Source: Octopus vulgaris
Lineage: Eukaryota
Length of the DNA: 64,000 nucleotides
NCBI GenBank assembly: GCA_951406725.2
Contig: OX597822.1
Location: 117,552,001 to 117,616,000, forward strand
Direction: 5' to 3'
The number at the start of each line of letters is the position of its first letter. Positions within the stretch are counted from its first letter, which is position 1. Under the pieces are notes generated by a model, which made no database searches, was not told where the DNA came from, and saw only the letters and a list, made by a program, of their open reading frames with translations. Position numbers and translations under genes: made by a program. Positions 27,250 to 60,921 of this stretch are shown in pieces.

Positions 27250-27554
27250 GCATACACACACATATACACATGCATACGCATGCATACATACATACACACA
27301 TACATACGTACATGCATGCATGTATAGGCACATACACACACACTGACCCACACACATGTGCACAAACAAACAAAAAGGAACGCAGTGTAAATAACGGACA
27401 GAGTCAGGACTATTGAAAAGGTTGCAAGACACAACGAAAATTTTAGGAAAATAAAAATAAGTGGAAATTTTACCTGTGAGTGTGTTACATTATAAGGCAC
27501 AAAAAGAAAATGACTCTCCCCAGACACAACAGTATATGTATGTATATATATATG

Positions 27555-28190
27555 TATAATAAGATGAGAAAATAGAAAGGTAATTAATAAATAATTGTTA
27601 TATTTCGGAATGGTCATTTTGCCAGTTTAGCCAATAAAAACACACGCACTATATATTTGGTGCTATTTTGCTTCAGTGTTATTTATTTTTTTACATTAAT
27701 CTTAATCTTATTTAAGCCAGAGTTCTTTCGTCACACTCCTTTGTTTTCTTCTTTCTTATTTATTTCTTATTTATTTCTTATTTATTGTGTTTTTATTGGC
27801 TAAACTGGCAAAATGACCATTCCGAAATATAACAATATCTGTTTCAACACACGACTTCACATAAAAAATCTTGCACAACAAATATTTAAACGTAATAAAT
27901 ATTTCTTATTTATTAAAAAATTCACTAACATTCCTTACTGCTATATCAATTCAGGGTCTTAAAAATTAATTAAGTAAATTAAAAATTATTTGAAAGTAAG
28001 TCGAGTCTCTTCAGAGGTATACCTTTATATACCTCTGAAGAGCCTCGACTTACTTTCAAATAATTTTTAATTTACTTAATTAATTTTTGAAACCCTGAAT
28101 TGAAATAGCTGTAAGGGATGTTAGTGAATTTTTTAATAAATAAATAATAATTTACTAATTACCTTTCTATTCTCTCATCTTATTATTATA
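27555..28190. repeat. Nested inverted repeats (outer arms enclosing two hairpins), Penelope-like
   Basis: Outer 27555-27592/28146-28190; inner 27593-27643/27786-27836; ~240-bp palindrome 27905-28145. Confidence 0.85.
28032..28116 (+). ncRNA. Type I hammerhead motif, degenerate stem II (inverted copy at ~27926-28015 has GATA for GAAA)
   Basis: CCT-CTGAAGA-...-GAAA-TAGCTG-TA-AGG. Confidence 0.55.
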
Positions 28191-28548
28191 ATAAATATAA
28201 TATATATTGGCGACGGTTTATATAGTTATCTTGCAGTTGAGGTTTAAATATGATGTTCAATAATCTTTCTATAATTGCAAAACATATATAAAATATATAA
28301 AATATTGTAGACATAAAACCCAAGTAAAAGAAAATCTAACACAAAATACTCTTTTCCTTTATGTCAAGTGATCTGACAAACTATTTTATATCGAATATGT
28401 ATCACTAAAATTATTTTCCCTCTGTTTTTATACAACACCATGCTCTTGTTTTTCAGACTGTCAGTTTCATTGCATTTTGCTCTTCCTGAATGAAGTTAGT
28501 AACCTTTAATTGTGCTTTTGTATACATATATATATATATGCGTGTGTA

Positions 28549-28746: not shown

Positions 28747-28804
<58 letters not shown>

Positions 28805-28910
28805 TATGAATGCTTATATTAGTACTTCTCTAATATTGAAGCTCAATTTTCAATGATGTTTTAAGATAAAAATAATTTTCTCGAGTTATTTTATATGTAA
28901 CAATTTATTA

Positions 28911-31382
28911 ATAACATAAGGGACTAAAGCCATCTGAATATGGCTAGGGACAGGGCAGGGTGGTGGGGGTGTTACTGTTGCATTTAGCCCCAGGCGAACA
29001 TCGACGTCACCAGAAAGGCTCGACACCGTCACGGTGCCCTTAACCTGCAAAGGGAGGTAATTCCCCGATGAAGCGGAAACCACACACGGACCATGGTTTC
29101 AAGGTGTATTTCCTATCGTCGGCGTGTGGTAGGCTTCCGCTTCCTCGACGAATCCTCACTCTGCAGGATATTCATATATAGATTTTCAAGCAAAATACAT
29201 TTGCTGATTTCGAAAATCTGTTCGAAAGCAATAATAATTCTCTAAAAGAGATATAGACAGTAACTGCTCGATAACATAAGGGACTAAAGCCATCTGAATA
29301 TGGCTAGGGACAGGGCAGGGTGGTGGGGGTGTTACTGTTGCATTTAGCCCCAGGCGAACATCGACGTCACCAGAAAGGCTCGACACCGTCACGGTGCCCT
29401 TAACCTGCAAAGGGAGGTAATTCCCCGATGAAGCGGAAACCACACACGGACCATGGTTTCAAGGTGTATTGCCTATCGTCGGCGTGTGGTAGGCTTCCGC
29501 TTCCTCGACGAATCCTCACTCTGCAGGATATTCATATATAGATTTTCAAGCAAAATACATTTGCTGATTTCGAAAATCTGTTCGAAAGCAATAATAATTC
29601 TCTAAAAGAGATATAGACAGTAACTGCTCGATAACATAAGGGACTAAAGCCATCTGAATATGGCTAGGGACAGGGCAGGGTGGTGGGGGTGTTACTGTTG
29701 CATTTAGCCCCAGGCGAACATCGACGTCACCAGAAAGGCTCGACACCGTCACGGTGCCCTTAACCTGCAAAGGGAGGTAATTCCCCGATGAAGCGGAAAC
29801 CACACACGGACCATGGTTTCAAGGTGTATTGCCTATCGTCGGCGTGTGGTAGGCTTCCGCTTCCTCGACGAATCCTCACTCTGCAGGATATTCATATATA
29901 GATTTTCAAGCAAAATACATTTGCTGATTTCGAAAATCTGTTCGAAAGCAATAATAATTCTCTAAAAGAGATATAGACAGTAACTGCTCGATAACATAAG
30001 GGACTAAAGCCATCTGAATATGGCTAGGGACAGGGCAGGGTGGTGGGGTGTTACTGTTGCATTTAGCCCCAGGCGAACATCGACGTCACCAGAAAGGCTC
30101 GACACCGTCACGGTGCCCTTAACCTGCAAAAGGAGGTAATTCCCCGATGAAGCGGAAACCACACACGGACCATGGTTTCAAGGTGTATTGCCTATCGTCG
30201 GCGTGTGGTAGGCTTCCGCTTCCTCGACGAATCCTCACTCTGCAGGATATTCATATATAGATTTTCAAGCAAAATACATTTGCTGATTTCGAAAATCTGT
30301 TCGAAAGCAATAATAATTCTCTAAAAGAGATATAGACAGTAACTGCTCGATTATATGAATATCCTGCAGAGTGAGGATTCGTCGAGGAAGCGGAAGCCTA
30401 CCACACGCCGACGATAGGCAATACACCTTGAAACCATGGTCCGTGTGTGGTTTCCGCTTCATCGGGGAATTACCTCCCTTTCCAGGTATAGGGCACCGTG
30501 ACGGTGTCGAGCCTTTCTGGTGACGTCGATGTTCGCCTGGGGCTAAATGCAACACTAACACCCCCACCACCCTGCCCTGTCCCTAGCCATATTCAGATGG
30601 CTTTAGTCCCTTATGTTATCGAGCAGTTACTGTCTATATCTCTTTTAGAGAATTATTATTGCTTTCGAACAGATTTTCGAAATCAGCAAATGTATTTTGC
30701 TTGAAAATCTATATATGAATATCCTGCAGAGTGAGGATTCGTCGAGGAAGCGGAAGCCTACCACACGCCGACGATAGGCAATACACCTTGAAACCATGGT
30801 CCGTGTGTGGTTTCCGCTTCATCGGGGAATTACCTCCCTTTGCAGGTTAAGGGCACCGTGACGGTGTCGAGCCTTTCTGGTGACGTCGATGTTCGCCTGG
30901 GGCTAAATGCAACAGTAACACCCCCACCACCCTGCCCTGTCCCTAGCCATATTCAGATGGCTTTAGTCCCTTATGTTATCGAGCAGTTACTGTCTATATC
31001 TCTTTTGGTGAATTATTATTGCTTTCGAACAGATTTTCGAAATCAGCAAATGTATTTTGCTTGAAAATCTATATATGAATATCCTGCAGAGTGAGGATTC
31101 GTCGAGGAAGCGGAAGCCTACCACACGCCGACGATAGGCAATACACCTTGAAACCATGGTCCGTCTGTGGTTTCCGCTTCATCGGGGAATTACCTCCCTT
31201 TGCAGGTTAAGGGCACCGTGACGGTGTCGAGCCTTTCTGGTGACGTCGATGTTCGCCTGGGGCTAAATGCAACAGTAACACCCCCACCACCCTGCCCTGT
31301 CCCTAGCCATATTCAGATGGCTTTAGTCCCTTATGTTATCGAGCAGTTACTGTCTATATCTCTTTTAGAGAATTATTATTGC
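28911..31382. mobile_element. Inverted tandem array of a 360-bp structured non-coding unit with 13-bp TSD
   Basis: Left arm 28911-30351 (4.0 units), right arm 30352-31382 (2.86 units, opposite orientation); CAATTTATTAATA at 28901-28913 and 31382-31394. Confidence 0.9.
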
Positions 31383-33879
31383 AATTTATTAATATATTTC
31401 ATGAAATACCAATAAGGCAGTACACGAGACATACTTAAGTAAATGTTGAATGTTTTCATGCTACTCAGCTCTGACAGTGTACGCTAGACGCATGTTCTCT
31501 CGCCATTCAATAAGCTAAAGTAAAAATTGTGAACACATTTTATGTGACAAACAGGACAGTTTTAATTAAAGGTATCACTACTCAAGATAGGTAGCAGCAA
31601 TATTTCCAAATCTCAAATAATTAAATGGTTTCTACATACTGGAGTTCAGTTAATTATAAGTGAGATATGGCAAAAACATTAGCTCGTCGGCTAATATTAA
31701 ATCAATGTCTTTACAAGCGTGATGACAACGTGTAAAATTTAGTTAGTGTCTCAAAATACGAGATGCATTTGTGGAAAGAACTATGTCACCAAATTCTTTT
31801 CGCAAGCGTATCTCCTATTTTAAGATGTGCTCAGCCATAGCAAACTGGCTGGAGATCTTGTGTTAGTGTACGCTGTCTGTAATTGAAGAATTGGGGTAAA
31901 ACTCAACATTTGTTTTAACGCTTCGGATATACTGAAATGTAAATTGCTTACGACGGATCCTCTCAACATTTTAGAAACAACTAAATTATACATCTAATAA
32001 AAGGAAAGAACAAATTAGATAATATAGTCGTATATGTACTAAAAATATGTATAGTCATACGTAGAATATCTCTGATATCGATCAGAATTGATTTAAAGTG
32101 AAGCAGTGACCTCAACGAAGTCGTTAATGAAATTAAAGAAATCATGAATATTGTCTTTTCACGTGGCCCTTACACCTTGGATTTCGCGCTGTCACTGATC
32201 CAAAGGGTTTATTGCAATGAAATATGTCTAAAAGAAAATACACTGCATTAAAAATATAAGAAAACGTTAGACGAAGACATTTTTATTGTATCTCAACATA
32301 ATTATCGTTGTTTGGTTTCTCAAGTAGAAATGAATCAACCATAGTGAATATATTTGATCTCATGTCTATTAAAAAAAAAACTATTTCTGTTTATACTCCT
32401 AGTACTAGTCTAATTAAAAAGTATTAAATTTAATTAATGCAACGTTACAAATCGCTGTCGAAACTCAAAACTTTTTATGAGCTAATAGCTTTTAAGACGC
32501 TTTTAAGGTCACAGTAACATACGGAGTGTTCTGCTGGGAAATTATACAGATAATGATCAACTTTATAGACACAACTAGGCCTCAAAACCACAATTAGTCT
32601 CATTCGATTTCATCTAATTTAAAGAGAAAAATTAATGTGGTGTTTGTTCGGTTTAATACACGAGTTATTTTTCAATTTCAAAGAAAACTCAGTCAAGTTA
32701 CCACATCTCACTTTGAAATAAAAGCCTTGAAAGCCTATCGGCATCTTTGATGTATTCTCTTATAATGTTATAGTGAAGGTTTGATCTCAACTAGATATTG
32801 CTTTGCATGCAGAATAGTAAATGCAGTGTACAGATAATCAATATGTTGTATAAAAGTGAGTTTAACCGTCTGAAAAATTTGTTAGAAATATATAACGAAT
32901 CAGCTAACTATGTTTATACGTAACAACTTTGATAAGACTTTTTTATATAGTATTTTCTCTTTTTATATAGCCAGTGAGAAGTTTTAGAGATACGGTCATG
33001 AAAATAAGAAAAATATATATATAACGTTAAAATATGTAACTAATGAAACTATAACGACTGAAAATATGCATTTTCAGATAAAGATTTAAAAAATATATCG
33101 TCAAGTTTTGGAATACACATGGGTACACATAAACACATATACAGGGACACACGTAAAAGTATAAAGTGAGCTTAAATTTGGTTATTTTTGGCAATAAAGA
33201 AACAAAGTGGTAATGAGTATTCATGTTGTTCCTGATCTCATAAAATACTTTAATGGTGAATATAAAATGAACAGGATTCAATTAAGAATCATAACTTAAA
33301 CTCGGGTTTTTGGGTACTTCTCGCTTGCTCTATCACGTTTACAAAATGCACTAAATACCAAATACAAACACACATACCGACACATAGACACTCACTATAT
33401 TCCTTTAGTCACCTAAATATTATTCTCTTAGTAATATTGATTTCATAAGATAGGATTTGGATGGAAGCTGAGTCATTGAGGGATGGAGAGCAAAGTGAAC
33501 CCGGATGGAATTTGAGCTTAAAATACAAAAGGCTGTACTAAATACCGAAAGGTATATTGTCGGACATTCTATTGATACTGATTCTACCATCCACTGCTCT
33601 TTTTATGAGATCGGTTTAGTAGTGCACAAAATACCTTGTGCTATCTAGCAACGTCCCTTTATGTTATGGGTAGAAAATCTCCAACCCTATACGACTTCGC
33701 CTTTGATCCTCTCAGTGCTGTTAAAATAATCCTGGAATCTATATTATTTACTAAAATCCCTCTCCCAAAACTATGGTCTTGTCTCTGTGTTATATCTTTT
33801 CTATTTGTACCAAAAAGAAAAGTAAGATATTTAAATATAAAATGTTAAAATCAGCATTTATAAGGATCACGCCCCACTC

Positions 33880-34215
33880 GAATGCTAGGACGTACCTCTG
33901 CATACTATACTAGTCTCAGTACGTTTGAATTAACCTCAACCAGCTGGGACTTCTCTCTTAATATGCTAATACTTATCTTAGCATGCTAAAACTCAGCTCG
34001 ATATGCTAAAACTCAGTTCAACATACTATGACTTATCTCAAAATATTAGGACTTATCGCAACACACTAGGGCTAATCTCTACATACTAGAACTAACCTCA
34101 ATTTATTAGGACTAACCTCTACCTGCTCAGACTTATCTTTACATACTAAACGTCACCCAGACATGTTAAGACTCGCTTCGACATAATACGACTAACCTCA
34201 TCCTGTTAGGATTTA
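33880..34215. repeat. Degenerate 20-bp minisatellite (~16-17 units)
   Basis: Period-20 units like CTAAAACTCAGTTCAACATA / CTAGAACTAACCTCAATTTA / TTAGGACTAACCTCTACCTG. Confidence 0.8.
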
Positions 34216-41269: not shown

Positions 41270-41575
41270 TTTACGACTAGCTACTTTGCTTGTTGCAAAT
41301 CAGTGACCGATGGTTGCTTTTTTTTCTATATATTGCTTGCTGGAGCGGACTCTGGCCATCTCTCTAGCGACCGGGTTTTCGCGATTGAGAACGAGTAAAT
41401 TAGCTCAAAACAGAGTCGGTCTCGCGATCCCGTCGTCTGCTGGAGGGTAGAAGAGATTCACTCCCCTGCTTGCAATATATACAGGGTGCAAGCTGCTCCT
41501 ATAACCAGTTAGTGGAAGACCTGCCTGGGGTTACACATCAGTAACATTGATAACATTGAAGGGCCATATTGATGC
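41135..41575 (+). mobile_element. Diverged single-copy relative of the 360-bp structured unit
   Basis: Same motif order: CAGTTACTG, AAATCAG..TTGCTT..TCTATATA, long rod hairpin, short hairpin, GCCTGGGG(C/T)TA, CAGTAACA, GCCATATT. Confidence 0.6.
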
Positions 41576-41592
41576 GGATATTAAATTTACTA

Positions 41593-41642
<50 letters not shown>

Positions 41643-50773: not shown

Positions 50774-51765
50774 AATCATGATGACTATCCACCAGTGGCG
50801 CGGAAGTCCATCATTGACCACTGACCATTGCCATGAAAAATGCCAACAATGCCTGTTTTGAAGTCGGGTAAGACCATTCCTGCACAAGATGCAATGTGAC
50901 TACTTAAGGCGAAATTACCTTGTATTTTCGTCTCGGGTCTGTTGGTGGCGAGTTGTCATTCTTTTGGGTAATGAAATGGTTGTCTATCCTATGTCATTTT
51001 GTTGACATCCACCAAATGTAATTGTATAGATTAAATTTCCCGAGCTGCAGGTGAAGTTGACTTCTACTTTAAAGGTTTGCCCACCTTTAAATGTGAATTC
51101 TGATTCTTAAATTAGGTGTAGGCTGGTGTTACAATTTGTTCTACCGCTTGTTCGGTTGGGGATTGGTTTACGTAATTACGTTCCAGTGAGAATTTGTTTT
51201 AGTTTTTTGGGCTAATTTTGATTTTGATGATTTGATGTGTTTCGATATATATATATATATATGTATGGAAACACATCAATATATATGAGTGTCCCTTGAA
51301 ATAGAAAATAGTCTTTTACGATAACATGGTGGACCAGGTCAGTTTAAGCTACCCTACTACTATAATGTAAACTTTTTTTTAACTTATAATATTCTGTGCG
51401 TGTATGTATATACAGATACAATACCAATATTCCACTGACTTTTTAATAATTCCTTCTGGAAACTATCTTTAACATTTTCTTGAGAATGTATATTTATGTT
51501 GTAATCTGTTGTGCCCAATATTTTAATGAACTTGTTAAACTTTTTTATGTTCTTAACATGTTCTTGTTACCAAAGAATGTATATATGTATTGTAGTATTT
51601 TGTGACAACCAATAATTAACATAACCAAACTTTTACATGTTACTTTTGACAATCTTTTTCTAAAAAGTGAAACCGGTAAAGTAAATAAACATCTTTTAAA
51701 ATTGCATTTTCAAACCTTCTTTCGTATATAATTTCACTCGTGCGGTACCTTACAACTCCACTTTG

Positions 51766-59935: not shown

Positions 59936-60491
59936 AGGCCATGGATTGGCGTAATCATTAACATATCGGACACAATCCCTCACAGTGTTTGCTCAGACAA
60001 ATCTTTGTATTCAGAATTCTTTGATGGTAGTTATAACCCGTTAACCGGATTGATACCACCGCCAAGTTCTTGGGTGCTTTTAGCGGAATTCGGGCTAGGT
60101 GTCCGGTTTCGGGAATGACAACTCCACTTTAATATCAGAGATCCTGAAAAATGAGGGGACATGACCGTTGTCCTTTCATTCCTCAGACAACTCTAAGTAT
60201 ACTCTTCTTTCATATGTTGAATAGTTTCGTTCAATGGTGCAGAGTAAAATGTGCTGCAGAAATAAATAAAAATGAAAGTTAATGTTATATGAAGGCCTTT
60301 GATGAAGCATTTTTCCACAGTGTCTTTTCTTGTGTAAGCGGAACAGTTTTAACTAGAAATGTAAAAATATCATGCTTTAACATGTTCATTGATATTAATT
60401 TCTTCAATAATTCATTTTAGCTTAAACTTAAATTAAAATAATAACTATTATTAAATCTCAGAATGAGATGTAAACAGTAATCGCTCGATAA

Positions 60492-60590
60492 TGTAAAGTA
60501 TAGAAGCCATCTTAGAAGCCACAGTAGAGCTACAGTAACACCCCCTCCCCTATGTGGTTAGCCATATTAAGATGGCTTCTATACTTTACA
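60492..60590. repeat. Short inverted repeat / possible MITE
   Basis: TGTAAAGTATAGAAGCCATCTTA vs TAAGATGGCTTCTATACTTTACA (23 bp perfect). Confidence 0.7.
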
Positions 60591-60921
60591 AAATAATAAC
60601 TATATTGCATTAAATATATTTATTTAACCCCCAAAAATCTAAGCAATATAAAAAAACAAAAAGCTCAAGTTTTCTTAGCCACGGTTCAAGGATTGAAAAG
60701 GCGAGAGCAGTACAAGGTTTAAAAATTTAAGATCTTGGATGACAACGGAATGATTTCAATGTCAACTTTTTTCAGAGCAAAGAGCGAACATAATTCAATT
60801 AAACTTTTACCGTCCAACATTCCCATAATGAGAACAAATTTTAAAATTGCATTACAAATGCACTAATAATTAATATTATGATTTGACTGCGTAATTACGC
60901 TCACTTAACCACCATCTAATA

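Follow-up and report, generated by a model that had tools for sequence, protein, structure and literature searches.

A putative non-LTR retrozyme family of Octopus vulgaris with a PLE-type insertion anatomy

The genome of Octopus vulgaris carries a 360-nt tandem repeat that very probably represents a young, non-autonomous and non-coding family of non-LTR retrozymes moved in the style of PLEs, with cleavage and circles predicted from the sequence. The family is probably copied by a PLE reverse transcriptase. We analysed a window of 64,000 nt (assembly GCA_951406725.2, contig OX597822.1, positions 117,552,001 to 117,616,000), in which the repeat forms a two-armed insertion of 2472 nt at 28911-31382 with 4.0 units on the minus strand and 2.9 units on the plus strand. 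The two arms are joined 5' to 5' at 30351/30352 (Table 1). The retrozyme kind and a proposed PLE link are already known, and PLEs were named 'a strong candidate' for copying animal retrozymes in 2020 (PMC7229834). What is added here is a rule for the pairing of the ends and the occurrence of drifted ribozyme cores.

Table 1. Features of the two-armed insertion and of its 360-nt unit (window positions; position 30712 is unit position 1)
Feature	Position	Strand	Details
Target-site duplication, left copy	28901..28913	+	13 nt; final 3 nt common to element end
Left arm	28911..30351	-	360-nt units in tandem, 4.0 copies; 'short' outer (3') end, at unit position 268
Hammerhead copies (GAAAC..GTC)	29089-29100, 29449-29460, 29809-29820, 30168-30179	-	
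Right arm	30352..31382	+	2.9 copies in tandem; 'long' outer (3') end, at unit position 311
124-nt rod extending hammerhead stem I	30723..30846	+	folding and covariation
Predicted type I hammerhead	30762..30807	+	read from sequence and descriptor scan
Hammerhead stem I	30762-67/30802-07	+	
Hammerhead core CCGACGA (U4C)	30768-74	+	
Hammerhead stem II	30775-89	+	U.U, then AGG/CCU, loop CAAUACA
Hammerhead GAAA	30790-93	+	
Hammerhead palindromic stem III	30793-30800	+	2-bp stem, loop CAUG
Small hairpin	30852..30868	+	kept in sister families
Family-conserved domain closed by CAGTAAC/GTTACTG	30913..30992	+	30913-30919 with 30986-30992
AGCCAT/ATGGCT hairpin	30945-30962	+	inside the CAGTAAC/GTTACTG domain
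Short 3' end site	30979	+	inside the CAGTAAC/GTTACTG domain
44-nt 'tail' between the two fixed 3' ends	30980..31023	+	unit 269-312; terminal copy 31340-31382
Last hairpin, AGATTTTCG/TGAAAATCT enclosing AGCAAA/TTTGCT	31031..31070	+	inner stem rewritten with pairing kept in sister families
Target-site duplication, right copy	31382..31394	+	first nt common to element end

The repeat unit

The unit has a GC content of 0.47, which is below 50%, and no coding frame longer than 65 amino acids; its longest ATG frames, of 50-65 amino acids, run antisense. A layout of LTR, internal region and LTR is absent from the unit. No PLE protein match was found in the family-A loci, and the RT and GIY-YIG frame between pLTRs that is the hallmark of an autonomous PLE is absent. 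By all features that can be tested in a sequence, the repeat is a non-LTR retrozyme. A B-box-like word on the minus strand of the unit was rejected as a promoter element, as it is not kept in family B described below. The octopus genome is rich in (TA)n and other microsatellites, and the window also holds a diverged 20-nt minisatellite at 33944-34215.

A hammerhead ribozyme in each unit

A type I hammerhead ribozyme can be read at the tip of the 124-nt rod, with its cut predicted at 30801|30802, after the GUC that ends at 30801. In a descriptor scan the hammerhead geometry was present in all seven units of the window (7/7), with further predicted cuts on the plus strand after 30441 and 31161, and the full hammerhead appeared on one polarity only. 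When the family-A sequence is compared with the consensus C3 U4 G5 A6 N7 G8 A9 / G12 A13 A14, A15.1-U16.1 and H17, every position agrees except U4, which is a C. Together with U10.1-U11.1, the core departs from the consensus at two places. Each of these variants has been reported in natural hammerheads, and U4C considerably lowers the activity in vitro (PMC3088659). Because the core combines U4C with the U.U, the activity of the predicted ribozyme is a real question. Rfam gave no match at the gathering score in the whole window, nor at E 10 in the region 28800-31500. A hammerhead-like word on the minus strand of the rod was rejected, as it is not kept in the sister families; other ribozyme classes, looked at by eye, received no support from Rfam.

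The 8-nt palindrome of stem III is retained with six different loops across the families, which fits cleavage as a dimer; a palindromic stem III has been described as a mark of hammerheads that cut as dimers (PMC4209133). In the modelling, the stem III homoduplex had -11.2 kcal/mol and the double hammerhead -23.8 kcal/mol, as compared with -3.4 kcal/mol per active monomer. Modelled inactive folds scored lower than the active ones, with -28.6 kcal/mol for the double form and -11.6 kcal/mol for the monomer, and the minimum-energy monomer as predicted differs from the active fold.

Copies in the genome and sister families

The genome of 2.8 Gb (227 contigs) was then searched with parts of the unit. 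The 38-nt core region of the hammerhead has 395 exact copies on many contigs, and the control had 0. A search with the unit gave 222 matches from the 40 candidates scored out of 681. Since most of the matches are 98-99% identical, this family, termed family A, is young. Its hammerhead site was identical in 212 of 232 scanned sites, the loci of which partly overlap.

Three sister families were named and further ones were seen. Family B, with a unit of 355 nt that is about 71% identical to A, was found via one of two loose-end motifs in public contigs and has 373 exact matches of a 30-mer; the other motif matched nowhere in the genome. Family C, with 2592 candidates and an identity to A of about 60%, was found beside a PLE. 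Family D and further families were found with a loose hammerhead pattern, whose gap length excludes family A and which matched 3714 times in the genome, compared with 86 times for the reversed control. The cores of C and D have the canonical CUGANGA at the same place, and B has UUGACGA (C3U). U4C is seen in A and in two other families. At 10.1-11.1, families A, B and C carry U.U, G.U or C.A. The loop of stem III is CATG in A, TATA in B and TCGA in C and D, with three more kinds elsewhere. Among the 100 matches listed of the 3714, loop 3 was palindromic by eye in 69, in five kinds to which family A adds a sixth; the chance of a palindrome is 1 in 16 for independent loops, but the copies counted are not independent.

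Family D (L163-L169, L191) is young, with tandem retrozyme units of 353 nt whose hammerhead is canonical throughout. The most distant family (L154, L159, L160) has a U4C core, an ACGT loop and the same 3' domain with rewritten helices. Within the window, a small old two-armed relic of the same superfamily lies at 60445-60591, with the long end on its left arm, the short end on its right arm and, by eye, a duplication of about 14 nt. At 41285-41600 on the plus strand lies a decayed distant relative of the unit that ends in (TA)n and scores 42 bits with the family model.

The older genomic families form a graded series at 60-90% identity. This bears on the idea of an endogenised viroid-like RNA that replicates from RNA to RNA and is occasionally captured by reverse transcription. 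The size, the rod with a multibranched fold and the many haplotypes among the loci would suit such an RNA. However, the full hammerhead is found on one polarity only and the graded older families point to a long residence as a retroelement, and we regard a viroid-like origin as very improbable.

Predicted fold of the plus-strand unit

The sequence-only reading had paired the plus strand of the right arm into eleven helices, which were taken to fold the unit almost end to end and on one strand only. All eleven can be written from the unit and six of them contain one G-U pair each. In the very copy that had been read, TCTCT/AGAGA cannot form since 30999-31011 has GGT for AGA, and it does form in the neighbouring copies. 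The helix ATTCGTCGA/TCGGGGAAT can be written with one mismatch inside. The rod 30723-30846 is solid, with a mean pair probability of 0.85-1.0 in its four outer helices. The ensemble probability was only 0.02-0.05 for GGCACCG/CGGTGTC, which the homologues support with 69.5% of the cells paired, and likewise 0.02-0.05 for GGGGCTAA/TTAGTCCC, for which the homologues give 44% and thereby no support. With 62-66% of the bases paired, a fold from end to end was a generous description, and the segment 30847-31023 has three near-equal predicted folds.

When the folding was compared with shuffled sequences, the plus strand reached -123.5 kcal/mol (z -4.95) with 0 of 100 shuffles as good, as the reading had expected. 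The restriction to one strand was overstated, since the minus strand reached -110.3 kcal/mol (z -2.26), again with 0 of 100 shuffles as good. Three monomers, each taken from cut to cut, were folded in linear and circular form and gave z values of -4.5 to -6.3 for the plus strand and -2.2 to -3.6 for the minus strand; in the circular plus-strand monomers z was -4.5 to -5.1 with 63-66% of the bases paired. Four full units of sister families, obtained from 4 of 12 loci tried, favoured the plus strand by 8.5-15 kcal/mol, and their minus strands still reached z -3.9 to -6.2. One old copy, C123, folded relatively better on the minus strand. We conclude that the fold is real and biased to the plus strand, yet the asymmetry is a matter of degree, with both strands folding.

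The G-U pairs had been taken as evidence for selection on a single-stranded RNA. This argument is weak, because the helices were chosen on one strand and a fair count shows no excess: with the union of the helices predicted for either strand in 14 family members, there were 40 G-U cells on the plus strand and 38 on the minus strand. A hand count of recurrent helix variants in family A slightly favours the reading, as six keep or improve a plus-strand pair and two break one. Selection on an RNA from the plus strand of the right arm is supported by the hammerhead with its covarying stems and not by the wobbles. The sequence-only reading had overlooked this ribozyme, along with the target duplication and the fixed 3' ends.

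The covariation was analysed in homologues. When 17 natural copies from families A, B and C were aligned without fitting, 95% of the 221 cells in the ribozyme stems were paired, compared with 11-52% with slid partners, and 4 of the 13 pairs had changed on both sides. For the full structure as first read, 72.5% of the cells were paired, compared with 36-50% in the controls, and both partners had changed in 19 of 79 pairs. In 14 members of more families, two-sided change was seen in 23 of 43 predicted pairs. As the rows descend from few families, these counts contain only a handful of independent events, and the old copies add noise. G5, A6, G8, A9, GAAA and the GUC cut triplet are near-invariant across families that are 60-71% alike, and N7 varies. 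The 3' half is conserved in a form other than the one first read: CAGTAAC/GTTACTG covaries and is also seen in the circular fold of family D. In family A, the fold with this helix lies 2-3 kcal/mol above the minimum. The 44-nt tail holds the 3' strand of the CAGTAAC/GTTACTG helix and the TCTCT/AGAGA hairpin.

If the repeat were a neutral satellite, a fold-back DNA element or a DNA cruciform, the fold would be a by-product of internal inverted repeats. That both strands fold better than shuffles, that a family-wide wobble asymmetry is absent and that the head-to-head arms look like a fold-back element would agree with this. In contrast, a hammerhead core with covarying stems is found on one strand, the arms end at two distinct fixed sites and are 5'-truncated at scattered points, and short arrays are dispersed over many contigs. 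This explanation is largely refuted and we give it next to no weight.

Anatomy of the insertions

The loci studied for their anatomy were top-scoring or first-listed matches and so do not form a random sample; three further listed family-A loci were left out. Among 36 distinct family-A insertions, 29 are two-armed with the 3' ends facing outward. In 25 of these 29, a short end close to unit position 268 is combined with a long end close to 312. Two insertions have two short ends, two have one atypical end and none has two long ends. In family B, 15 of the 16 two-armed copies (among 27 loci) likewise combine a long and a short end, at homologous sites. Taken together, a tail of about 44 nt is present on one arm only in 40 of the 45 two-armed copies of the two families. 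(TA)n is touched by 32 of the 36 family-A insertions. Outside of pure TA, 12 of 13 target duplications are 12-14 nt long when the overlap with the element ends is counted.

PLE insertions target (TA)n and show an inverted, 5'-truncated copy, with a tail that is frequently confined to one end (PMC8557442). The length of the PLE tail equals the spacing of two RT start sites, with cutting and extension of both strands of the target (PMC11167929). As read from the sequence, the insertion anatomy of the retrozyme family carries this PLE-type signature. Elsewhere in the window, nested inverted repeats lie between TA-rich runs at 27540-28200, with arms of 125 nt (27897-28021/28028-28152) and more pieces seen by eye; they may be another two-armed remnant of the PLE type.

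The inner ends of the arms, which are 5' truncations, are scattered; of 58 inspected by eye, 1 is within 5 nt of the predicted cut site, so that a cut linear monomer was not the template. Scattered inner ends fit a circle and an uncut uniform multimer alike. In 15 loci with 67 full units, 13 carry one locus-typical haplotype throughout, up to 8 units, and in all six loci with full units on both arms (6/6) the arms share the haplotype of the locus. L032, with an array of about 11 units, is a haplotype mosaic and L031 is partly so (2 of the 15 loci); a single circle leaves these unexplained.

The family could alternatively be a SINE-like parasite of PLEs with a weak or idle ribozyme, for which the template would be an uncut multimer, the fold would serve mainly as a landing site for the RT and no circle would be needed. 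The mosaic array L032 speaks for it, as does the recent spread of families A and B despite their altered cores (U4C; C3U), and the single inner arm end in 58 near the cut site is as compatible with an uncut multimer as with a circle. In addition, hammerhead mutants of a lizard PLE still insert in vitro, and unprocessed RNA is the main substrate (PMC11167929). However, the catalytic core and the GUC are near-invariant across families that are 60-71% alike with N7 varying, the stem III palindrome was rebuilt in six ways, and 13 of 15 arrays are uniform in shared variants over up to 8 units. We hold the SINE-like parasite to be fairly unlikely.

Candidates for the PLE partner

The genome contains thousands of GIY-YIG candidates and intact-looking frames of 781 amino acids with RT and GIY-YIG in many copies. 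The family with the 781-aa frame (L071-L080) has many intact-looking copies at 98-99% identity. This family, by eye, and also a second PLE family have hammerhead-like motifs of their own near the 3' ends, and both sit in (TA)n. The 3' region of the 781-aa family contains repeated ATTGG/TGACGT motifs, and its hammerhead-like motif seems by eye to be a U3-A8 core variant. In the few copies inspected by eye, the 781-aa family seems to end at one site on both arms, which counts against the partnership model. The flanks were examined for about 50 of the 148 scored GIY-YIG matches (6136 candidates).

Among the PLE-containing loci examined with the model search (45 + 20 sources), no terminal repeat (pLTR) related to the unit was found. 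A weak match of the unit near a PLE in L081 was rejected as a pLTR link, as it is a separate family-C insertion. The retrozymes beside PLE pieces in L155 and L191 were also rejected as pLTRs; because (TA)n lies between them, they point to a common target. In L142 (1356-2209), between TA runs, a family-C copy has a PLE RT fragment fused directly to its 5' end, and this single case is possibly a template switch. The window itself has a PLE protein fragment on the minus strand at 50918-51211 that shares 43% identity with the C-terminal portion of the 781-aa frame.

Sequencing runs

Parts of the unit were found in 20 of 24 sequencing-run rows, none of which is listed as RNA. In all four runs followed further (4/4), which are only guessed to be RNA, the unit-bearing contigs go back on themselves after 360 nt, and a circle and a tandem array fit this alike. 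These four runs consist of contigs only, from which strand, ends and level are not readable. A 25-nt stretch of the hammerhead had 0 matches in a metagenome scan.

Proposed mechanism and its meaning

In the mechanism that we propose, the array would be transcribed by read-through or from a promoter. Neighbouring hammerheads would pair via the palindromic stem III to a double hammerhead, so that 360-nt monomers would be cut out. A host ligase may then circularise the monomers; with a single stem III of 2 bp per circle, the ribozyme would be largely off. The PLE protein, with its GIY-YIG nuclease and reverse transcriptase, would nick each strand of AT-rich DNA, with about 12-14 nt between the two nicks. 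The two 3' ends would act as primers for cDNAs on the same RNA, with the short site (268) used by one end and the long site (312) by the other. Both cDNAs could run for one to many units before their far ends are joined, which would leave two arms that face outward, one of them carrying the tail.

We tentatively go further, with a confidence that falls somewhat short of an even chance: the insertions may be the direct footprint of rolling-circle target-primed reverse transcription on a circular RNA, in which a dimeric PLE enzyme would prime both nicked strands of the target on one 360-nt circle, at two different fixed sites, with several turns per cDNA, and the young lineages may have spread with drifted cores (U4C, C3U), which would be active only as obligate dimers and be missed by the standard ribozyme searches. 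If true, the rolling-circle reading accounts both for the movement of animal retrozymes and for the confinement of the PLE tail to one end. A retrozyme without a protein that bears the PLE signature provides exact start sites, a near-strict rule of one long and one short end and haplotypes common to both arms, so that the PLE model can be tested with a 360-nt circle and purified PLE protein.

In the literature searched, we found no report of the two-armed, one-tailed form of retrozymes and, supplements and subscription papers apart, no paper on cephalopod elements of the retrozyme or hammerhead kind. The word 'ribozyme' is absent from the main text of a 2026 octopus repeat annotation. Because Rfam missed the hammerhead sites in the window, our results suggest that thousands of such sites in the genome may lack annotation.

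Comparison with known systems

Canonical metazoan type I hammerheads of the newt and schistosome type (PMC4209133) resemble the octopus ribozymes in a helix I of 6 bp, a helix II of about 4 bp and a 2-bp helix III whose loop is palindromic, together with a proposed action as dimers. They differ in the conserved G-C at 10.1-11.1, where A, B and C have U.U, G.U or C.A, and in positions 4 and 3, where A has U4C and B has C3U.

The metazoan non-LTR retrozymes of Cervera and de la Pena 2020 (PMC7229834) share with the octopus family the tandem non-coding units of 150-450 bp with one type I hammerhead each, a GC content below 50%, long target duplications and a highly self-paired predicted circle. 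They occur as dimers to multimers with target duplications of more than 4 bp, and a mussel family has units of about 350-390 bp. Unlike these, the octopus unit has a variant core (U4C, U10.1-U11.1) and the family has two outward-facing arms with two fixed 3' ends; the word 'inverted' is absent from the main text of PMC7229834. Cleavage and circles were demonstrated in that work, whereas the octopus family is known from its sequence.

The same partnership has been proposed for vertebrate retrozymes as non-autonomous PLE derivatives (bioRxiv 10.64898/2026.07.22.740005). That study argues from co-occurrence, pLTR similarity and phylogeny in vertebrates, whereas our case is built on the insertion anatomy in an invertebrate genome and no related pLTR was found here. 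Of nine predicted retrozyme (frog) dimers, eight did not cleave in vitro in the vertebrate study. Its pipeline, described with canonical and minimal hammerhead models, might overlook a core with U4C and U10.1-U11.1.

With the PLEs, that is Poseidon PAc (PMC11167929) and Naiad and other EN+ clades (PMC8557442), the octopus family shares the inverted 5'-truncated copy adjoining the main copy, the tail that is often at one end only, the AT-rich or (TA)n targets, the hammerhead in the repeat and the two RT start sites. It differs from them in that the retrozyme has no reading frame, its whole element is the repeat unit, and its tail is 44-47 nt long as compared with 30-40 nt in PLEs.
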